Of a DNA stretch of 64,000 bases, positions 6,073 through 14,128 are shown in pieces. Position 1 is the stretch's first letter. Each line of letters starts with the position of its first letter. The notes beneath the pieces are model-generated. The model had not been told where the DNA came from, made no database searches, and saw only the letters and a program-made list of their open reading frames with translations. The stretch covers positions 9,745-73,744 of the forward strand of contig CAMDBM010000002.1 in NCBI GenBank assembly GCA_945889085.1, read 5' to 3'. The DNA is from Ferrithrix thermotolerans DSM 19514. Its GTDB lineage: Bacteria; Actinomycetota; Acidimicrobiia; Acidimicrobiales; Ilumatobacteraceae. A program made the position numbers and the translations under genes.

Positions 6073-6084
6073 CGTTTGGGTCCT

Positions 6085-6600
6085 ATGACCGTCCACGATC
6101 GCCCCTTCGGCCGCTGCCTCGAAGACTTCGCAGTTGGTGACATCTACCGGCACTGGCCCGGCAAGACCATCACCGAGTACGACGACCACCTCTTCTGCAT
6201 GATCACCATGAATCATCACCCGTTGCACACCAACGACTGGTTTGCGGCCAAGAGCGTTCAGGGTCGCAATGTGGTGGTCGGCAACCTCGTGTACTCCCTC
6301 ACGCTCGGCATGAGTGTCCCCGACGTGAGCGGTGCCGCCATCGCCAACCTCGAGGTGGAGACGCTGCAGCACAAGTTCCCCACATTCCACGGGGACACCA
6401 TTCACGCCGAGACCCGTGTCCTCGACGTGCAGGAATCGAAGTCTCGCAACGACCGCGGTGTCGTCACCGTCGAGACAAAGGCGTTCAACCAGGACGGCAA
6501 GGAAGTGTGTTACTTCCGCCGTCGCGTGATGGTGTGGAAGCGCGAGTTCGCCCCCTCGCGGGAGCGCCCGTATGACGGCCAGGACGTCTGGGCCGGCTGA
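6085..6600 (+). CDS. MaoC-family (hot-dog fold) dehydratase
   Basis: Hot-dog hydratase pattern: ITEYDDHLFCMITMNHHPLHTN, then GDTIHAETRVLDV and GVVTVETKAFNQDG. Confidence 0.8.
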   Translation: MTVHDRPFGRCLEDFAVGDIYRHWPGKTITEYDDHLFCMITMNHHPLHTNDWFAAKSVQGRNVVVGNLVYSLTLGMSVPDVSGAAIANLEVETLQHKFPTFHGDTIHAETRVLDVQESKSRNDRGVVTVETKAFNQDGKEVCYFRRRVMVWKREFAPSRERPYDGQDVWAG

Positions 6601-6613
6601 TCCCGCGTTGAGC

Positions 6614-7459
6614 ATGGCCGACCTCGTCGGCCGTGTGCTGGCGTGGGGTTTGCCCCGCATGCGGGATCTGCCGTGGCGGCAGTCCCGGGACCCGTGGGGC
6701 ATCCTCGTCGCAGAGGTGATGGCCCAACAGACGCAGGTGGACCGGGTGGTGCAGCGCTGGGGCCGGTTCCTCGAGCGCTTCCCCACTCCGGCCGCGTGCG
6801 CAGCCGCACCGCTCGGTGACGTCCTGCGCGAGTGGCAGGGCCTCGGGTACCCGAGGCGAGCAAGGCATCTCCACGAGTCAGCGAACCGCGTGGTGGAGCT
6901 CGGCGTATTCCCGTCCACGCTTGACGGGCTGCTGAGCCTGCCCGGGGTCGGTCAGTACACGGCGCGTGCGGTGCTCGCCTTCGCGTTTGAGTCGCCGGCG
7001 GCCGTGGTGGACACGAACATCGCACGGGTGCTCGCAAGGACGGTGGGGGAGCGGCTCACGGCGAAACGTGCGCAGTCGATTGCCGACGAACTCTGCCCGC
7101 CCGAGGATTCGTGGGTGTGGAACCAGGTGATCATGGACCTCGGTGCCGTCCTGTGCAGGCCAGCGCCTCGCTGTGCTGAGTGTCCGATCCAGCAGCAGTG
7201 CGTATGGACTGCGTCGGGTCAGCCGGATCCAGACCCTGCGATCGGCACGGCCGGCGTCAGTGGCAAGCAGGCGCGTTTCGAGGGATCGGACCGTCAGGCC
7301 CGCGGCCGACTGATGGCGAGGCTTGTTGTGGGCCCCCTCTCGGCTGCCGAGGCTGCGGCCGCGATGCAGGTGGACGCAGAACGCGCCGAGCGACTCGTCT
7401 CGGCGCTCGTCGCCGAGGGTCTTGTTGTCGGCAACGGTGAGTCGCTCCGGCTGCCCTAG
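6614..7459 (+). CDS. mutY: A/G-specific adenine DNA glycosylase (MutY/HhH-GPD family)
   Basis: LPWRQSRDPWGILVAEVMAQQTQV, HhH LPGVGQYTARAVLAFAF, and the 4Fe-4S loop CRPAPRCAECPIQQQC. Confidence 0.8.
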   Translation: MADLVGRVLAWGLPRMRDLPWRQSRDPWGILVAEVMAQQTQVDRVVQRWGRFLERFPTPAACAAAPLGDVLREWQGLGYPRRARHLHESANRVVELGVFPSTLDGLLSLPGVGQYTARAVLAFAFESPAAVVDTNIARVLARTVGERLTAKRAQSIADELCPPEDSWVWNQVIMDLGAVLCRPAPRCAECPIQQQCVWTASGQPDPDPAIGTAGVSGKQARFEGSDRQARGRLMARLVVGPLSAAEAAAAMQVDAERAERLVSALVAEGLVVGNGESLRLP

Positions 7460-7466
7460 GGCCTGC

Positions 7467-8006
7467 TCAGCGGGTCACGGAGCGAAGGATCTCGGCGAAG
7501 GCCTCGTCGGCCTTGGCGCGCATCTCGTCGTCGGTGCGGTCCTGAATGGGATGTGGCACGAACACGCTCGCCGGCGTGAAGCCGAGTGCCGCTGATTGCG
7601 CCTCGGCGGCCTGAACGAACTCGGTGGAGGCAATGAACATGCCGACCACACCGCGGGACTCGAGATCACTGATGTCGTGCACACTGCACGACGTACAACT
7701 GCCTCAATCGGCGAGTGCTTCGATAACCACCTGGCACTGGCTGGCGATCTCGTGGCGGAGGTCCACGGGGGCCGGCTTGGTGAAGGTGGGCTTCTTGAAG
7801 CGTTTCACCTTCGCCCCGACCTCGGTGAGACGCTGCTCGAGCCGGTCGAGGAACACGTCGCCGCGCGCCTTGGAGATGTCGAGCAGACCGACGGTCATGC
7901 CGGACAGCGTCGTCGGTCGCTCGAGGAGCGTCCGGTGGGCGACGGTGCGCTCACTCGTGGGATCCAAGATGGTCGTGGTCACGTGCTCATCTCCTCGTGT
8001 CGTCAA
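7467..8006 (-). CDS. UGSC-family selenoprotein with in-frame UGA (selenocysteine) at 7704..7706
   Basis: Track ORFs 7704..8006 and 7467..7682 are one frame (540 nt), interrupted only by TGA. Read-through gives ...VVIEALAD-U-GSC-TSCSVHDISD..., which contains the U-G-S-C signature. A SECIS-like hairpin follows. The likely true start is GTG 7982, 8 nt after GAGGAG (7991..7996). Confidence 0.8.
7674..7692 (-). promoter_or_regulatory. putative bacterial SECIS hairpin
   Basis: On the minus strand, exactly 11 nt after the UGA, lies GTCGTGCA-GTG-TGCACGAC. This is a perfect 8-bp stem, or 7 bp plus a 5-nt AGUGU loop, with G/U in the apical loop. Confidence 0.65.
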
Positions 8007-8021
8007 TTCTGTGTCGTCGGT

Positions 8022-9494
8022 TCATCGCCAAGTCACTTCTCGTGTGACGGGCTGGCTGCCCGCCGCACCGTTTAGCCAGCCACCGATCATGGTGGAGAAC
8101 AACCCGGCACCGCCACCAGCATGCACCAAGAGGATGCCGCCCTGCCGGAACTTCGGGAGTGTTTGGTCTTTCAGGCCCTCCGGCACGCCCTCGGCGATAC
8201 CGGCGGCCCCGCGGATGATGTCCGCACCCGCTATCTGCGTGCGCTCGTGGAGCTCGGCGAGGATGCGGGTTCGGTCCCACCCGGCGTCCGCGAACACACG
8301 GGCGTGCTCCGGGCCGAGGATGAGGACGACGTCAAAGGCGATGACAAGCTTCGGATGCGTCATGGCGCGCAATGCAGCAGCCAACGAGTTGGCCAGCGAC
8401 TCGGGTGTGCGTGACAACTGATCCACAATCACCTTGGGGCCTTCGCCGGCAAACAGCGTGATGGCGTCCGTGCCCGGGGTGATCCCGCGTTCGGTGGCGA
8501 GCGAGGTCCACGGCGAGCCCACTTCGTCCTCGGGGAAGCAGAACGAGATCTTCCCAGGATTGCCGTGTGCCGCGCGGTCCACGCCGCCCGGACGGCCACC
8601 GCCGACATTGCGGATCACGAGTTGCAAGGCCCTGCCGATGGTGAGGTTGGCGCGGTTGCCCTGGCCGAGCACGTTGACACCGCTGTTCATACCGATGGCC
8701 TGCGTGCCCGGACCGTTACAGATGATGACCGGACCCACCGGCATCGTGGTGGCCAGCACGCCGTGGATGTTGAACTCGTCGGTGCACGCGGCCTGCACGG
8801 CAGTAAGCACCCACGGGAAATACTCGGGTTTGCAACCGGCCATGACGGCGTTGATCGCAACCTTCTCCACCGTGATCTCCACGAGGTCCGGTGGCACGAT
8901 CGCAACGAGTTCGTCCGGAGCGTGCGAGGTTCCCTCGAGCATGCGCAGCACGCGGGCCTCGGTGGGCGGCACGACGGGGAGGCCGTCGGTCCAGCCGCGC
9001 TCGAACAATGTCTCCATCTCGTCCTCGAGCGTTGCGAGTTCGATGCGGCGTGCACGCAATTTTGATCCGGTGAAGCGGACGCGCAGTTCGTCGGCAAGGT
9101 CGGGATCCACCGACTTCGACCCGCAACCCGGGCGCATCACCGGAAGATCGGGTGCTAGCCCCGCAACGCCGCTGACCTGCTCCCAGTCGGTACGGGACCA
9201 GCCAACAGTGCGTTCAAGCTCCCGGCCGTTAGCCACCCGGATGAGCGTGGGTACGGTCTCGATCTCGTGGTGCCAACTGACAGCGAGCTCGGCATCCGAG
9301 AGTGACGGCAGGCCGCCAAGGAACGACGCATCGTCCTGCACGTAGACGGTGAGCGGGGTTGCCGAGGCACCCAACTGTTCGAGCACGGGCACGACCATGC
9401 GGCATGTGGCGCAGTCCTGCTTGACGACCACGACGAGTCCGTCGGGTAGTACAGGTGCGGCGGTCGGGGCGACGGCGTGCGGCTCAGCGGACAT
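8022..9494 (-). CDS. thioredoxin-fold (CxxC) domain fused to a ~350-aa domain of unknown function
   Basis: 490-aa ORF with ATG at 9494. The N-terminus VVVVKQDCATCRMVVPVLEQL is thioredoxin-like. I do not recognise the remainder (GWTDGLPVVPPT..., GGGRPGGVDRAAHGNPGK...). The ORF ends 15 nt upstream of the UGSC ORF on the same strand. Confidence 0.6.
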   Translation of the reverse strand: MSAEPHAVAPTAAPVLPDGLVVVVKQDCATCRMVVPVLEQLGASATPLTVYVQDDASFLGGLPSLSDAELAVSWHHEIETVPTLIRVANGRELERTVGWSRTDWEQVSGVAGLAPDLPVMRPGCGSKSVDPDLADELRVRFTGSKLRARRIELATLEDEMETLFERGWTDGLPVVPPTEARVLRMLEGTSHAPDELVAIVPPDLVEITVEKVAINAVMAGCKPEYFPWVLTAVQAACTDEFNIHGVLATTMPVGPVIICNGPGTQAIGMNSGVNVLGQGNRANLTIGRALQLVIRNVGGGRPGGVDRAAHGNPGKISFCFPEDEVGSPWTSLATERGITPGTDAITLFAGEGPKVIVDQLSRTPESLANSLAAALRAMTHPKLVIAFDVVLILGPEHARVFADAGWDRTRILAELHERTQIAGADIIRGAAGIAEGVPEGLKDQTLPKFRQGGILLVHAGGGAGLFSTMIGGWLNGAAGSQPVTREVTWR

Positions 9495-9582
9495 TGACCC
9501 GGACGGTAGTGCTCCGGTGCGACATGTGCCACAGTCCCGCCCCTAGACACGGCCAGATGGCACCCGTAGCGTCTGTCCCGCT

Positions 9583-10437
9583 GTGGGGAACACCGTTCGA
9601 ATCACGTTCCACGGCGTCCGTGGGTCGACGCCGTGTCACGGTGACGAAGTCCGTCGGTACGGCGGGAACACGTCATGCGTGTCTGTTGACGCGCCCGGGG
9701 AGGACCCGCTCGTGTTCGACCTCGGCACCGGATTGCGCTACTTCGGCCGAAACCAACCCCACGACGGATCGTTCCGAGGAACGTGCCTGCTCACGCACCT
9801 GCACTGGGACCACACCCAGGGTCTCCCGTTCTTCGTCCCGATCCTGCGCGATGGCGCCAAGCTCGACATCTACGGGCCAACCCAGGAGGACGGGGCCACG
9901 GTCCGTACCGCGATGAGCCGCTTCATGGCGCCCCCACACTTCCCGGTGGAGCTGGACAAGCTTCCCGGTGCGATCAACTTCTTCGATGTGGGCGACCACG
10001 ATTTCTTCGTCGGGGGCTTCGCCGTCCGGTCGCGCCTCATCCCCCATGTTGGCAACACGCTCGGCTTCCGGGTGGAGTGGAACGGGCTGTCGATTGCCTA
10101 CCTGTCGGACCACCAACAGCCCTACGACGGTTCGTTCGGCGCCACCGACGGGGCGATGGACCTTGTACGCGGTGCCGATCTCGTGATCCACGATGCGCAG
10201 TACACGCCTGAAGAGTTCGAGATGAAGAGCACGTGGGGTCATTGCACGGTTGATTACGCCGTGTGGCTCGCCGCAACAGCGGGCGCCAAGCGTCTTGCTC
10301 TGTTCCATCACGACCCGACCCGTCATGACGACGATGTGGACGCGCTGCTGTGCGCGGCGCGCGAGTCCGGCCGTGAACAGGGTGTGGAGGTCTTCGCTGC
10401 AAGCGAGGGTCTCACCGTGTCGCTCGACGCTGCCTGA
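9583..10437 (+). CDS. MBL-fold metallo-hydrolase
   Basis: Metal-binding motif HLHWDHTQG and a later HHD near the C-terminus. Confidence 0.85.
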   Translation: MGNTVRITFHGVRGSTPCHGDEVRRYGGNTSCVSVDAPGEDPLVFDLGTGLRYFGRNQPHDGSFRGTCLLTHLHWDHTQGLPFFVPILRDGAKLDIYGPTQEDGATVRTAMSRFMAPPHFPVELDKLPGAINFFDVGDHDFFVGGFAVRSRLIPHVGNTLGFRVEWNGLSIAYLSDHQQPYDGSFGATDGAMDLVRGADLVIHDAQYTPEEFEMKSTWGHCTVDYAVWLAATAGAKRLALFHHDPTRHDDDVDALLCAARESGREQGVEVFAASEGLTVSLDAA

Positions 10438-10511
10438 CCGAGGCTTACCCGTTGCCGGTAAGGGCAGATCCCCGGTTGCGTTGACGAGTACGTGCCGGAC
10501 GTCTGCTCCCC

Positions 10512-10535
10512 GGGTTGACGGACTAGGGTCAACCC
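10512..10535 (+). promoter_or_regulatory. 8-bp perfect inverted repeat (candidate operator or hairpin) upstream of the IOR gene
   Basis: GGGTTGAC-N8-GTCAACCC, about 70 nt upstream of ATG 10607. Confidence 0.3.
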
Positions 10536-10606: not shown

Positions 10607-13600
10607 ATGACTGACGTAGTTCACAAGCGGGGTGGCCAGCACGCCGGGGACCTCGACGCGAAGTACCGGGAGCCCGACGGCAGTTTCTACTTCACTGGGG
10701 TGCAGGCCCTCGTCCGCGTGCCGATCGACCAGATGCGTGCGGACCGGGACGCGGGTCTGAACACGGCGACCTTCATCTCCGGCTATCAGGGCTCGCCGCT
10801 TGGCGGTTACGACCGAGAACTCATTGCGCACAAGAAGCTCCTCGAACCGTGGAACTTCGTGCATGTGCCCGGCCTGAACGAGGAACTCGGCGCAACCGCA
10901 GTGGTCGGCAGCCAGATCTCGGCAACGTTCCCGGGACAGAAATATGACGGTGTCCTCGGCGTCTGGTACGGCAAGGCACCGGGTCTCGACCGCTCGGGCG
11001 ACGCGATCCGCCACGCGCAGTACGGCGGCACCACCCGTCACGGCGGTGTGCTCGCGCTGGTAGGGGACGATCCGGCCTGCAAGTCGTCCACCCTGCCGTC
11101 GTCATCGGAGTGGTCGATGGCGGATCTGCACATCCCCACCCTCCAGCCCGGAAACGTGCAGGAGAGCCTGGACCTCGGTCTGCACGGAATCGCGATCTCC
11201 CGACTCGTCGGGCTCTGGACCGGCATGAAGATCGTGTCGGCGGTTGCCGACGGTACGGCAACCATCGAGGTCGGTCCCGGCCGGTTCGCCCCAGTGATCC
11301 CCGAACTGATCTGGAACGGCAAGCCGTATCGGCCGACCGTCGAGGGCAACGTCGGGCCCTGGACCTCCGGTCCGCTGGAGAAGGAGATCTTCGAAGCACG
11401 GATCCCGCTCGCCGAGATGTATGCGTCGGCCAACAACCTCAACCGGATCACGGTCGACCCACCGCAGGCATGGATCGGCATTGTTGCATCGGGTCGTTGT
11501 TACTACGAGACCCTTGAGGCGCTTCATCTCCTCGGCCTCAGCCGGGCGGACCTCTCCAGATTCGGTATCCGACTCCTGCAGCTCGGCATGCTCTACCCGT
11601 TGGAGCGCGACGTGGTGCGCCGCTTCGCGCAGGGCCTCGAGGAGATCGTCGTCGTCGAGGAGAAGCGCCCGTTCATCGAGACGTACCTCCGTGACGCCCT
11701 GTACGACATGACGAACGCGCCGAGGATCCTCGGCAAGCGGGACCACGAGGGTGCCCTGCTGGTGCCCGGCACGGGAGCCCTCGATGCCGACTACCTCGTC
11801 GACCCCCTGCGCCGGCGTCTCGCAGCGCGCCTCGACTCTGCGCAGATGACACCGGCCACTCCGTCCTCGTCGGCCCTGCAGATCAAGCGCAAGATCGAGG
11901 TGCTCCCGAACCGCACGCCGTACTTCTGCTCCGGGTGCCCGCACTCCACGAGCACCAAGGTGCCAGAGGGCTCGCTGGTCGGCTCCGGAATCGGCTGCCA
12001 CGGTCTCGTGGTGTTCCTCGCCCCGGAGCGCGTGGGCCAGATCATGGGCGGCACGCAGATGGGCGGCGAGGGCGTCCAGTGGATTGGGGTTGCCCCGTTC
12101 GTCGAGACCGAACACTTCATCCAGAACATCGGGGACGGCACCTTCGCCCACTCGGGCTCGCTCGCCATCCGCCAGGCAGTCGCCGCGGACGCGAACATGA
12201 CGTTCAAACTGCTCTACAACAGCGCCGTGGCAATGACCGGCGGTCAGGACGCAGCAGGCGCGATGCCCGTCGACCGTCTCTCGTCGTGGGCGCTGTGCGA
12301 AGGCGTCAAGCGGGTCATCATCACCACCGACGAGTTGTCGAGGTACCGGGGCGTCAAACTGTCGTCCGGTGTCGAGGTGTGGGACCGCTCCCGAATCGTC
12401 GAGGCACAGGAAGTACTCGCGAAGATCCCCGGCGTCACTCTGCTCATCCACGACCAGCAGTGCGCAGCGGAAAAGCGTCGGGACCGCAAGCGCGGCAACG
12501 CCGTAGATCCGGCACGCCGGGTTGTCATCAACCAGCGCGTGTGCGAGGGATGTGGAGACTGCGGCGTGAAGTCGAACTGTCTCTCCGTTCAGCCCGTGGA
12601 TACCGAGTTCGGGCGCAAGACGGCAATTCACCAGTCGTCCTGCAACAAGGACTATTCCTGCCTCGAGGGTGATTGCCCCTCGTTCCTCACCGTGGTGCCC
12701 AAGAAATCCTCCGCTAGGTCGAAAAAAGCGACACGGGCCGAGGGCGGGGCCCGCCGTCGCCCGACGTTCGACCTGTCGCTGCTGCCCGAGCCGACACCGA
12801 TCGTGCCCACAGACAACGTCACGCTCCGGATGCCCGGGGTAGGCGGTACGGGCGTGGTCACTGTTGCCCAGATCGTCGGCACGGCCGCAACCCTCGACGG
12901 CAAGCACGTCGGTGGCCTCGATCAGACCGGTCTCTCGCAGAAGGCCGGGCCGGTGGTTTCCGACGTGCACATCTCCTCCACGCCCATCGAGGGAACGAAC
13001 AAGATCACTGCGGGTGGGGCGGATCTCTACCTCGTGTTCGACCTCCTCGTCGGTCTCTCGCCGGGCAACCTGGTTGGGGTGTCGCCTGCCCGGACGGTTG
13101 CGGTGGTCTCCACCTCGAAGAGTCCCACCGGGCTCATGGTGCGGGATACGAGCGCCGTGTACCCGAATCTCGCGGACCTGCAGTCCGACATGAACCAGGC
13201 GACGCGTGCGGCGGACAACCGTTTCCTCGACACGATCGCCGTCACCGAAGCACTCTTTGGGGAGTCGACAACGGCGAACATTTTCCAGCTCGGTATTGCG
13301 TACCAGTTGGGGGCACTGCCGGTATCTGCCGGGGCGATCGAATCGGCAATCGAGCTGAACGGTGCAGCGGTCAAGGCCAACAAGCTTGCGTTCCGCTGGG
13401 GGCGGCTCTGGGCCGTCGATCCCGCGAGGGTCCGCGAGCACTCGGTGTTCGCGGAGGACTACCTCCCCAAGCCCACGCAGCGCATCGAGGAAGCGATTGT
13501 CTCCATGGGTCTCGGCGACGGGGAACTGGGTCGGATCGTTCGCCTGCGCGCAGGGGATCTCGTCGTCTACCAGAACGAGAAGTACGCACGCTCCTATCTC

Positions 13601-14128
13601 GATGTGGTGAAGCAGGCCGCCGGTACGGACAGCATTGCCTTCGCCGAGGCCGTTGCTCGCGGTCTCTACCGGCTGATGGCGTACAAGGACGAGTACGAGG
13701 TTGCCCGGCTCCATCTGGAGGAGGGGGCCCGCGCCGAGGTGGAGAATGCCGTCGGCGCGAACGTCAAGGTGTACTTCAACTTCCATCCGCCGCTCCTGCG
13801 CAGCCTCGGTATGAAGAACAAGATTGCGCTGGGTCCGTGGGCCCGCCCGATCCTCGGCATGCTGCGCGCAGGGCGCGGCCTGCGGGGCACGTGGGCCGAT
13901 CCCTTCGGCAAGGCCGAGGTCCGTCGGGTGGAGCGTGGGCTCATCAACGAGTACGTGTCACTGATCGGGCAGGTATCTACCCGGGTCAACGACGGCACGG
14001 TGGCGGCAGCGGTGGAGCTGGCTGGTCTGCCGGAACTCGTCCGTGGGTATGAGCAGATCAAACTGCGCACCGTGGAGCACTACCGCTCAGAGCTCGCCCG
14101 CCTCCGTAGCAACCTCGGGCTCGTGTAG
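10607..14128 (+). CDS. indolepyruvate ferredoxin oxidoreductase family protein (fused alpha/beta, ~1170 aa)
   Basis: N-terminus FYFTGVQALVRVPIDQ, a TPP-binding region, ferredoxin-like CEGCGDCGVKSNC, and characteristic length. ATG at 10607. The upstream part of ORF 10250.. overlaps the MBL gene. Confidence 0.9.
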   Translation: MTDVVHKRGGQHAGDLDAKYREPDGSFYFTGVQALVRVPIDQMRADRDAGLNTATFISGYQGSPLGGYDRELIAHKKLLEPWNFVHVPGLNEELGATAVVGSQISATFPGQKYDGVLGVWYGKAPGLDRSGDAIRHAQYGGTTRHGGVLALVGDDPACKSSTLPSSSEWSMADLHIPTLQPGNVQESLDLGLHGIAISRLVGLWTGMKIVSAVADGTATIEVGPGRFAPVIPELIWNGKPYRPTVEGNVGPWTSGPLEKEIFEARIPLAEMYASANNLNRITVDPPQAWIGIVASGRCYYETLEALHLLGLSRADLSRFGIRLLQLGMLYPLERDVVRRFAQGLEEIVVVEEKRPFIETYLRDALYDMTNAPRILGKRDHEGALLVPGTGALDADYLVDPLRRRLAARLDSAQMTPATPSSSALQIKRKIEVLPNRTPYFCSGCPHSTSTKVPEGSLVGSGIGCHGLVVFLAPERVGQIMGGTQMGGEGVQWIGVAPFVETEHFIQNIGDGTFAHSGSLAIRQAVAADANMTFKLLYNSAVAMTGGQDAAGAMPVDRLSSWALCEGVKRVIITTDELSRYRGVKLSSGVEVWDRSRIVEAQEVLAKIPGVTLLIHDQQCAAEKRRDRKRGNAVDPARRVVINQRVCEGCGDCGVKSNCLSVQPVDTEFGRKTAIHQSSCNKDYSCLEGDCPSFLTVVPKKSSARSKKATRAEGGARRRPTFDLSLLPEPTPIVPTDNVTLRMPGVGGTGVVTVAQIVGTAATLDGKHVGGLDQTGLSQKAGPVVSDVHISSTPIEGTNKITAGGADLYLVFDLLVGLSPGNLVGVSPARTVAVVSTSKSPTGLMVRDTSAVYPNLADLQSDMNQATRAADNRFLDTIAVTEALFGESTTANIFQLGIAYQLGALPVSAGAIESAIELNGAAVKANKLAFRWGRLWAVDPARVREHSVFAEDYLPKPTQRIEEAIVSMGLGDGELGRIVRLRAGDLVVYQNEKYARSYLDVVKQAAGTDSIAFAEAVARGLYRLMAYKDEYEVARLHLEEGARAEVENAVGANVKVYFNFHPPLLRSLGMKNKIALGPWARPILGMLRAGRGLRGTWADPFGKAEVRRVERGLINEYVSLIGQVSTRVNDGTVAAAVELAGLPELVRGYEQIKLRTVEHYRSELARLRSNLGLV

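Follow-up and report, generated by a model that had tools for sequence, protein, structure and literature searches.

A recoded selenocysteine codon in the downstream gene

The window, by which we mean the whole 64-kb stretch of DNA that was analysed, carries on its minus strand a two-gene module in which a fusion gene for a thioredoxin domain and a second domain, here called domain X (Trx-X; 8022..9494), is followed by the gene for a UGSC-family selenoprotein (7467..7982). The Trx-X gene is present as the earlier note had described it, as a reading frame of 490 residues with an ATG start, its coordinates including the stop codon, and it begins as quoted there, including 'VVVVKQDCATCRMVVPVLE'. 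Translation from 7982 to 7467 yields a single frame of 171 codons plus stop, with the sole in-frame TGA at 7704-7706. The likely start of this second gene is the GTG at 7982, and homologues start at an equivalent M-T-x-I-L-D-P-T; a ribosome-binding sequence, GAGGAG, can be read at 7991..7996, 8 nt 5' of this codon. With the start at GTG 7982 and not at TTG 8006, the spacer between the two genes is 39 nt. Thus, the strand and gene order claimed earlier hold, whereas the distance of 15 nt given with them is true only for the mechanically called start at TTG 8006. In one relative (L001) a 4-nt overlap of the two genes takes the place of the spacer. No match was obtained in a sigma-70 promoter scan, which is uninformative for high-GC actinobacterial sequence, and neither selA, selB or selD (by motif scan) nor a tRNA (by tRNA scan) was detected within the 64-kb window.

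With U read as C, the product of the downstream gene matches the Pfam model PF24696 (UGSC) from residue 4 to residue 170, covering positions 1-171 of the 172 in the profile (E 2.4e-41, 142.1 bits against a cut-off of 25), and it also exceeds the cut-off of NF041046 (156 bits against 125, E 6.3e-46). This full-length match and the in-frame TGA bear out the claim that a UxxC selenoprotein lies directly downstream. The motif U93-G-S-C96-T-S-C99, of the UxxCxxC type (7686..7706, with the TGA as its first codon), reads ALAD-U-GSCTSC in its context and is near-invariant in 81 related loci. Across 79 genome loci the selenocysteine codon is TGA in 76, TAG in two and TGC in one. Zhang and Gladyshev reported the UGSC selenoprotein family in 2007/2008, and the GOS survey counted 255 selenocysteine forms against 21 cysteine homologues (PMC2398784). 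Such rare replacement of the selenocysteine speaks for its importance to the chemistry. Two apparent fusions of UGSC to an outer-membrane-protein-like sequence (L162 and L109) were judged to be chimeric or truncated assemblies.

A SECIS-type hairpin, GUCGUGC-AGUGU-GCACGAC, is predicted as a local stem at 7674..7692, 14-32 nt after the T of the TGA. Its five core pairs are paired in all 81 Sec-type genes, the bases G22 and U23 of its loop never vary, and third-codon positions show 64-100% conservation within the stem (at least 90% for five of the six) versus 46-72% outside it. In the single Cys-type gene (L082) the hairpin is lost. The support for this element comes from conservation and pairing analysis; an Rfam search for a SECIS family gave no match and the fold z-score of the whole region was not significant. 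We conclude that the TGA is a recoded selenocysteine codon accompanied by a conserved SECIS hairpin. One could argue that the TGA is a true stop, or that the adjacency is incidental and the genes are unrelated or decayed, and the only result that favours this is the mechanical list of ORFs, in which the TGA divides the selenoprotein in two. We give such a reading next to no credence, because the Pfam match is full-length and continuous through the TGA, the hairpin is conserved with constraint at the RNA level, the two genes stay paired across phyla whichever of them the search starts from, and the two partners are also found as fusion proteins.

Domain X and the thioredoxin module

Domain X comprises residues ~159-490 of the Trx-X protein (8025..9020, minus strand) and belongs to a family that we could not assign. 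Neither Pfam nor NCBIfam has a model that matches residues ~130-490, in agreement with the earlier note, which had left about 350 C-terminal residues without a family, and neither sequence nor profile searches of the PDB found a relative. The family is large. Among the matches listed, the full-length Trx-X protein has more than 8000 homologues, which carry only the names 'thioredoxin family protein' or 'hypothetical protein' in their source records, and domain X alone matches 5453 clusters at 50% identity. Residues conserved throughout the family are D170-G-L-P...P-P-T178, A219-G-C221, R281, N283, R288, C319, E322, W329, H397 and G460-G461, the two cysteines being encoded at 8832-8834 (C221) and 8538-8540 (C319). 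With its size and its invariant polar residues, the family looks like one of enzymes. The AF2 model of the domain alone is of high confidence (pLDDT 91, pTM 0.90), and a search for internal repeats of the 'Toblerone' type by hhalign of sub-segments gave probabilities below 3%, so this kind of concatenation was rejected.

Foldseek searches of the PDB, one with the full-length Trx-X model and one with the model of the domain alone, found no solved structural relative of X, the best query-normalised TM being 0.31. Together with the missing Pfam, NCBIfam and PDB-sequence matches, this result answers the question whether the C-terminal domain maps to a known enzyme family, and it does not. The top matches of both models are class I fumarate hydratases of Leishmania (E 1.7e-4 to 3.2e-4, probability 0.95-0.98), which raises the idea that X is a hydro-lyase-like or metal- or cluster-containing enzyme, distantly akin to the class I (4Fe-4S) fumarate hydratases and acting on a carboxylate, with the thioredoxin domain and UGSC serving to protect, activate or repair a Cys-ligated site and taking no part in catalysis. 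Conserved arginines in X fit this idea, as do C221, C237 and C319, all of which are conserved within the Trx/redoxin-fused subfamily, and genes for CoA-transferases, acyl-CoA dehydrogenases and carboxylate transporters near several stand-alone X loci. However, the superposition reaches a TM of just 0.2-0.31 with an rmsd of ~16 Å, and no Fumerase or Fumerase_C Pfam match was obtained. Furthermore, C221 and C319 are family-wide, but C237 is a cysteine in only 35 of the 107 family representatives, so that a three-Cys cluster site is not a feature of the X family and a three-Cys iron-sulfur site was rejected. The neighbouring gene families, for their part, occur so widely in these genomes that their presence carries no weight as evidence, and a census of 140 genes showed no enrichment of them. 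We regard this reading of X as highly unlikely.

The N-terminal domain of the fusion protein (residues ~15-122; 9129..9452, minus strand) is CcmG/TlpA/ResA-like in its AF2 model and Foldseek matches. The earlier note had placed the motif C28-A-T-C31, whose codons are read directly at 9402..9413 on the minus strand, in a thioredoxin-like segment, and structure prediction agrees with it: in the model, strand 19-24 is followed by C28/C31 at the start of helix 29-43, the first helix, with pLDDT 81-93. Foldseek gives a probability of 1.0 for CcmG (1kng, 2b1k), ResA (1st9) and thioredoxins; the target-normalised TM values are 0.5-0.58 and the rmsd values 2.2-3.3 Å. Both cysteines are invariant among 28 relatives. 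E79, T80, V81 and P82 are likewise invariant and lie just ahead of strand 83-88, where the conserved proline of a cis-Pro loop facing the CxxC is expected. The thioredoxin fold and the position of its CxxC are canonical. Curated sequence models score below their cut-offs on this domain, TIGR01068 reaching 22 bits against 96.8 and TraF, its sole Pfam match, 14 bits against 23. In the wider fused subfamily the consensus around the CxxC is D-C-P-T-C, where the window protein has D-C-A-T-C, and other X proteins bear an AhpC/TSA-, Redoxin- or TlpA-type N-terminal domain with a CPTC motif. Between the two domains, residues ~123-158 (9021..9128, minus strand) form what appears to be a flexible linker, modelled with low confidence (pLDDT 28-41 in the full-length model). 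It carries a conserved motif, R-P-G-C124-G-S (C124 codon 9123-9125). None of its residues R121, P122, G123, C124, G125 and S126 varies among close relatives, and P-R-P-G-C is at least 90% conserved in both Trx- and redoxin-fused forms.

The N-terminal domains of relatives pass the cut-offs of the AhpC-TSA and Redoxin models, and this is one reason to consider an antioxidant role, in which UGSC would be a selenium peroxidase or a reductase of oxidised sulfur in proteins or small molecules, and Trx-X would only recycle it, as in Prx or Msr proteins with a fused thioredoxin. Such a role would suit hosts from oxic aquatic and soil habitats, the abundance of UGSC in surface waters (PMC2398784) and an operon without metabolic partner genes. 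On the other hand, mere recycling leaves unexplained a domain of 330 residues with many invariant polar positions that is also found without thioredoxin. The N-terminal domain in the window has a CxxC and not the PxxxTxxC of Prx, and matches neither the AhpC-TSA nor the Redoxin model at E up to 0.1. Besides, selenocysteine is almost always kept here, whereas thiol peroxidase families usually have many cysteine homologues. An antioxidant role of this kind is, in our view, unlikely.

Conservation of the X-UGSC pair

The earlier note proposed that the pairing should be looked for in related genomes, and it is found there. In 79 of the 80 species-level genomes with a full-length homologue, the next gene downstream on the same strand is UGSC. 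These genomes span at least eight phyla, and their hosts include Acidimicrobiia, Geodermatophilus, Myxococcota, Spirochaetes, Alpha-, Beta- and Gammaproteobacteria, Chloroflexota, Acidobacteriota and Krumholzibacteriia. The reverse test, which started from metagenome contigs found through a UGSC/SECIS nucleotide motif, placed X upstream in 38 of the 40 evaluable contigs (directly adjacent in 36, ~2 kb upstream in two more). Distant stand-alone X genes with ~38-40% identity are likewise followed by UGSC in all four examined, and UGSC genes without X nearby are few (L094, L154 and L119). Natural fusions of the two occur in both orders, UGSC-X and X-UGSC, with the UGSC parts backed by Pfam UGSC matches. 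The two-gene operon is thus real and conserved across many bacterial phyla, and the linkage of X to UGSC is near-obligate, as the natural fusions confirm. We found no third conserved gene: when ORFs were clustered, the next most widespread cluster reached no further than 22 of the 81 loci, and in a Pfam census the 140 nearest neighbours were spread over 99 families.

The thioredoxin domain is absent from ~20% of the sampled UGSC-linked X partners. This indicates that the core pair consists of X and UGSC and that the fused reductant is dispensable; the thioredoxin module is an accessory to that pair. X also occurs alone, in tandem (X-X) or fused to redoxin-type domains. In some fused UGSC-like domains, such as that of protein P0269, the Cys/Sec motif is lost while X keeps both of its cysteines, which suggests that X may have a chemistry of its own.

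The tandem X-X proteins, which suggest self-association, could also be taken to mean that X is not catalytic at all and serves as a carrier or scaffold, for example in the handling of persulfide, selenide or a metal, or as a platform that docks UGSC to other enzymes. Apart from C221 and C319, X has no residue that is obviously redox-active, a gene of the Aminotran_5 (cysteine-desulfurase) type precedes one stand-alone X, and in several genomes the module lies directly beside selA-selB, all of which would accord with such a function. Yet only a single Aminotran_5 neighbour was observed, any dominant selenoprotein would be just as likely to show linkage to selA/selB, and the numerous Asp, Arg, Asn, Glu and His residues that are invariant in X suggest a defined pocket for a small molecule. 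A purely carrying or scaffolding X therefore seems quite unlikely to us.

Proposed function and comparison with known systems

On the whole we lean towards the reading that the two genes encode one self-contained, thioredoxin-driven selenoenzyme. Its core would be formed by X and the small UGSC selenoprotein, probably working as a complex. X, with its ~330 residues, C221, C319 and the conserved Asp, Arg, Asn, Glu and His, probably binds the substrate, and UGSC would supply the reactive centre, U93-x-x-C96-x-x-C99, and do the redox chemistry. In such a scheme the selenolate of UGSC would attack the substrate, and the resulting selenenyl-sulfide, or Se-substrate adduct, would then be resolved by the neighbouring cysteines. 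The version in the window would bring its own reductant, the CcmG/TlpA-like domain (C28-x-x-C31), tethered by the flexible linker with its further cysteine C124; fed by the thioredoxin/NADPH pool of the cell, this domain would reset the centre to its reduced state. Electrons would thus flow in the direction of reduction. As for the substrate, the neighbourhoods of some stand-alone X loci give a faint hint of an organic acid or an acyl-CoA-related compound. The earlier note had suggested a dedicated thiol/selenol redox relay. Its parts, the thioredoxin fold and the pairing with a selenocysteine protein, stood, and the analysis found neither a pairing that fails in relatives, nor a familiar enzyme family for the C-terminal domain, nor a CxxC outside a thioredoxin fold; the relay itself is what we infer from these parts. 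We further speculate, well short of calling it probable, that catalysis may reside in X, as a subunit with a new fold in a globally abundant aerobic selenoenzyme. With its UxxCxxC partner it would carry out the selenium-dependent reductive cleavage of a bond in a common dissolved organic compound, much as glycine or proline reductase does, with the CcmG-like domain as electron source.

UGSC has been counted among the most abundant aquatic selenoproteins since the reports of 2007-2008, and a 2026 review still lists it among the selenoproteins whose biological functions are largely uncharacterised. The UGSC family itself was previously known. In the literature we found no description of a conserved X-UGSC operon, nor any characterisation of X. 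Because UGSC almost never occurs without X, whose family exceeds 5000 clusters and has neither a Pfam model nor a solved structural relative, it appears to be part of a defined two-protein enzyme and not an orphan small protein, and in most cases this enzyme carries its own thioredoxin-type reductant. Since the module adjoins selA-selB in several genomes, it may be the main reason why its hosts keep the selenocysteine machinery. If the speculation above is right, the pair would represent a new enzyme class that explains the abundance of UGSC in fresh and marine waters. The pair is present in the cultured strain Geodermatophilus obscurus DSM 43162 (L066), which offers a tractable host for its study.

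Compared with the UGSC family as modelled in PF24696 and NF041046, the downstream gene is a full-length member with the U-G-S-C motif and a SECIS hairpin, and nothing sets it apart. Fig. S1A of the 2008 GOS metagenome paper (PMC2398784) includes a fusion of UGSC to an unnamed domain, 'Unknown_1'. Given the many natural UGSC/X fusions in both orders, Unknown_1, as presented in that figure, is very probably domain X. The window differs from such 'UGSC/Unknown_1' fusions in having two separate genes, with a thioredoxin domain at the N-terminus of X. The class I (4Fe-4S) fumarate hydratases and the 'Toblerone-fold' cyclic amide hydrolases come closest to X in structure, though the matches are weak, and X differs from them in a TM of at most 0.31, in matching none of their sequence models and in lacking a conserved three-Cys site. 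For residues ~15-122 the best structural matches are CcmG, TlpA and ResA, and the subfamily consensus C-P-T-C is also the active-site motif of CcmG. These proteins are exported and membrane-anchored, whereas the N-terminus in the window has, by eye, no obvious signal peptide or anchor, and its domain is fused to X and scores below the cut-offs of the sequence models. Trx-MsrA-MsrB fusions of the PilB type have a thioredoxin built into the reductase. Like them, the Trx-X protein joins a Trx-fold CxxC domain to an enzyme that is presumed to be recycled; unlike them, it has unrelated catalytic parts, and its redox-active selenoprotein is a separate polypeptide.

A further parallel to the proposed enzyme is offered by the thioredoxin-dependent reductases of glycine, sarcosine and betaine, whose substrate-specific selenoprotein B has a UxxCxxC motif (PMC6778437, PMC13188914). 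Homology of UGSC to GrdB or PrdB was rejected, and the parallel is kept as an analogy at the level of the motif: none of 26 UGSC sequences matches the Pfam model GRDB (PF07355) at E up to 10, UGSC has no relative in the PDB, and its sole NCBIfam match, to GrdF, reaches only 11.4 bits (E 0.087) where the cut-off is 800. X, without any Pfam match, likewise differs from the pyruvoyl proproteins GrdE and PrdA, and grdA, grdC and grdD are absent among the conserved neighbours of the pair. UGSC is also smaller, with ~170 residues against ~430 in GrdB, and its hosts are largely aerobic heterotrophs, whereas those of the Grd systems are Stickland fermenters. What the module shares with the Grd systems (GrdB/F/H with GrdE/G/I) and with D-proline reductase (PrdB with PrdA) is its general design, in which a UxxCxxC selenoprotein (U93-G-S-C96-T-S-C99 in the window) is encoded alongside a larger, substrate-binding partner, here the putative role of X, the system is tied to reducing power of the thioredoxin type, and selenocysteine is rarely replaced by cysteine.

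The Trx-X/UGSC gene pair and its conservation

The 490-codon frame at 8022-9494 (minus strand, ATG start) is present in the ORF listing and in the sequence as the earlier note had quoted it, and its product, Trx-X, joins an N-terminal thioredoxin domain to a domain at residues ~159-490 that we call X. Downstream, the UGSC selenoprotein gene (7982-7467, minus) is one 171-codon frame with one internal TGA at 7704-7706 (minus; context ALAD-U-GSCTSCSVHD). With the TGA read as Cys, its product aligns with Pfam PF24696 'UGSC' over the full length (E 2.4e-41) and scores above the cut-off of NCBIfam NF041046 'UGSC family (seleno)protein', and these matches confirm the UxxC selenoprotein proposed to follow Trx-X. 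The proposed 15-nt gap holds only if the gene starts at the mechanically called TTG (8006). A 39-nt spacer is probable, because the GTG at 7982 has GAGGAG 8 nt upstream and agrees in position with the starts of homologues. One relative has no spacer: its genes share 4 nt. The flanking genes, a divergent MBL-fold hydrolase gene (9583-10437, plus) and a convergent HhH-GPD glycosylase gene (6572-7459, plus), therefore leave the pair as an isolated two-gene operon.

The pairing of the thioredoxin fusion with UGSC is conserved in related genomes, as the earlier note's proposal required. On the X side, scanned with one genome per species, 80 loci carry a full-length Trx-X homologue (50-71% identity), and 79 of them have a UGSC gene directly downstream on the same strand; the exception is a 3.3-kb contig (L064) whose downstream sequence is unrelated. 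The hosts include Acidimicrobiia/Ilumatobacteraceae, Geodermatophilus (including the cultured G. obscurus DSM 43162), Frankiales, Myxococcota/Deltaproteobacteria, Spirochaetes, Alpha-, Beta- and Gammaproteobacteria, Chloroflexota, Acidobacteriota and Krumholzibacteriia. Starting from UGSC, a nucleotide pattern of UGA plus hairpin picked out 80 metagenome contigs, of which the 40 whose upstream sequence reaches 1.2 kb or more were evaluated: X lies directly upstream in 36 and ~2 kb upstream in two (together 38 of 40), and two have no X. The end of X abuts UGSC in 31 further short contigs. About 28 partners in this sample carry a Trx-type domain and seven are stand-alone X, that is, X without such a domain. 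All four distant stand-alone X genes on long contigs (~38-40% identity to the window X) are followed by a UGSC gene split at the Sec codon, and one redoxin-X gene and one more stand-alone X are likewise followed by UGSC. The window pair is one ordinary member of a widespread module; the closest protein to its Trx-X among the matches listed, 98% identical, comes from a freshwater actinobacterial MAG.

ORF clustering over 81 loci revealed no third conserved partner: every cluster outside X and UGSC is limited to at most 22 loci, and these clusters reflect Acidimicrobiia synteny. Pfam sorts the 140 nearest-neighbour genes into 99 families, of which HhH-GPD (11), Lactamase_B_2 (9) and thiolase (6) are the most frequent. 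Several stand-alone X loci are flanked by CoA-transferase, acyl-CoA dehydrogenase, acyl-CoA synthetase and carboxylate-transporter genes, but genomes of this kind hold so many members of these families that their presence carries no weight. Two genes upstream of the window module, a large ORF (10610-14128, plus) of the indolepyruvate/2-oxoacid:ferredoxin oxidoreductase type matches POR, TPP_enzyme_C and DUF6537 and is not conserved alongside the module; two genes downstream lies a MaoC/mesaconyl-CoA-hydratase-like gene (6076-6600, plus). At three loci (L084, L110, L149) an unrelated gene or a ~2-kb insert separates X from UGSC, in L084 a 311-aa ORF (6579-7514) with no Pfam match on record. UGSC stands without X in the available flanks of L094 (4517-5047), L154 (2862-3398) and L119 (692-1231), next to, as judged by eye, a VanX-like dipeptidase gene, ABC-transporter permease genes, and CoA-transferase-like and MaoC-like genes, respectively. 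The occurrence of MaoC-like genes near both the window module and the solitary UGSC of L119 is probably coincidence.

Selenocysteine recoding

Recoding of the TGA to selenocysteine is established at the sequence level. A predicted local stem, GUCGUGC-AGUGU-GCACGAC, begins 14 nt past the TGA of the window gene. All 81 Sec-type genes from related loci keep its five core base pairs and the loop bases G22 and U23. At one pair both bases have changed in a compensatory way, and at another G-C, G-U and A-U replace one another. Third-codon synonymous positions in these genes are 64-100% conserved inside the stem (five of six at 90% or above) and 46-72% outside it. The sole Cys-type (TGC) gene among 79 genome loci, from an uncultured Lysobacter sp. 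(L082, 2086-2145), has lost the hairpin-forming nucleotides (ACCTCCTGCAGCACCCACGAC), which is consistent with the hairpin being the SECIS element. An Rfam search matched no family.

Of the 79 genome loci, 76 have TGA at the U position, two have TAG and one has TGC. Both TAG codons, in G. obscurus DSM 43162 (L066:7662-7664) and a Geodermatophilus sp. (L068:1947-1949), are followed by an intact SECIS hairpin. They fit the UAG-to-Sec recoding reportedly described in Geodermatophilus by Mukai et al. in 2016. In the GOS metagenome survey, UGSC was represented by 255 Sec forms and 21 Cys homologues (PMC2398784). Together with the near-absence of Sec-to-Cys replacement among the genome loci, this suggests that UGSC chemistry truly requires a selenolate.

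ARAGORN found no tRNA genes in the window (1-64000), hence no tRNA-Sec, and a simple motif scan of the 64,000 nt found no selA, selB or selD signatures, so the Sec machinery must lie elsewhere in the genome. In at least five genomes of two phyla, from Actinomycetota and Gammaproteobacteria, selA-selB is contiguous with the module, either upstream (L010:2899-5882, L011:57-2694, L018:2865-5841) or downstream (L044:4576-8012, L062:4520-6645), and L051 has just a selB-like GTPase gene downstream (8473-10518). In such sel-linked genomes the module may be the main selenoprotein sustaining the Sec trait.

Domain X, its thioredoxin arm and a proposed mechanism

The AlphaFold model of full-length Trx-X has a mean pLDDT of 73.5, with 81-93 in the N-terminal domain. 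Here strand 19-24 is followed by C28-A-T-C31, which opens helix 29-43, and E79-T-V-P82, invariant in relatives, precedes strand 83-88. Foldseek matches this domain to CcmG, ResA, TlpA-like proteins and thioredoxins (probability 1.0, rmsd 2.2-3.3 Å), which places the CxxC motif within a thioredoxin fold as proposed. The domain falls under the cut-off of the curated Pfam and NCBIfam models; it is a divergent thioredoxin-fold member, not a classical thioredoxin. The linker (residues 123-158) is predicted to be disordered and carries an invariant R-P-G-C124-G-S motif, also kept in relatives whose N-terminal domains score as AhpC/TSA, Redoxin or TlpA. An antioxidant peroxidase-type system is less well supported as a reading of the pair.

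The earlier note could assign the C-terminal region to no family, and indeed no Pfam or NCBIfam model matched X in the window protein, stand-alone or fused forms, nor did sequence and profile searches of PDB sequences find anything. X homologues are abundant, with 5453 clusters at E <=1e-3 (1269 at E <=1e-30) among 1.84 billion cluster representatives, and their source names are taken from the N-terminal domain only or read 'hypothetical'. An X-only model based on 58 diverse sequences reached pLDDT 91 and pTM 0.90. Its best PDB match, class I fumarate hydratase, is weak (E 3.2e-4, query-normalised TM 0.31, rmsd ~16 Å), as is that to 'Toblerone-fold' cyclic amide hydrolases (TM ~0.24), and a hydro-lyase-like X with protective redox partners is also less well supported. 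No internal repeat was found within X. Family-wide residues are D170-G-L-P...P-P-T178, A219-G-C221-x-P, T250, G261-P, G277-x-G-x-R281-A-N283...G-R288-A, G311-x-P, C319-x-x-E322, W329, H397 and G460-G461. C221 and C319 are the only family-wide cysteines; at position 237, just 35 of 107 representatives have Cys, so a three-cysteine iron-sulfur site is unlikely to be a feature of the family.

Among the best 150 cluster representatives, a complete Cys-type UGSC domain (motif CGSCTSW) precedes X in P0251, P0266 and P0225. Others carry X and then the N-terminal half of UGSC, terminating exactly at the Sec position, or start with the C-terminal half followed by X; both half-UGSC classes are Sec-containing fusions, in one order and the other, that gene calling cut short. 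Tandem X-X proteins of ~715 aa also occur. The fused UGSC parts score above the curated Pfam cut-off. The 2008 GOS paper mentions a 'UGSC/Unknown_1' fusion (PMC2398784), and Unknown_1 is very probably domain X. At L162 (2-883) and L109 (380-1048), outer-membrane-protein-like sequence runs in frame into an N-terminal half of UGSC that is truncated relative to the family profile; both are more likely to be chimeric metagenome assemblies than real fusions.

The data support X and UGSC as an obligate functional unit, usually fitted with a CcmG/TlpA-type reductant of its own, attached by a flexible tether that bears a cysteine. The best reading is a thioredoxin-driven selenoenzyme, for which the association of the two proteins, the course of the electrons and the substrate are inferred. 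The earlier interpretation of the pair, with a putative redox relay, is supported. X would bind the substrate, U93 would attack it, C96/C99, possibly with C221/C319, would resolve the intermediate, and a relay of C124 and C28/C31 would deliver electrons to re-reduce the centre. A carrier or scaffold role for X is less well supported than this selenoenzyme.

Comparison with known selenoprotein systems

U-x-x-C-x-x-C is the motif of selenoprotein B in the thioredoxin-dependent glycine, sarcosine and betaine reductases (PMC6778437, PMC13188914). UGSC and GrdB are alike at this motif level only; UGSC/X failed both the sequence-model and the gene-context test against Grd/Prd, and membership in these systems was rejected. 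UGSC itself is a known selenoprotein family of unknown function, and we found no description in the literature of a conserved UGSC operon with a thioredoxin-fused partner. Nor, it appears, have the near-obligate link between X and UGSC, the variety of X architectures and the lack of a structural relative been described so far, and the finding is well suited to experimental follow-up.
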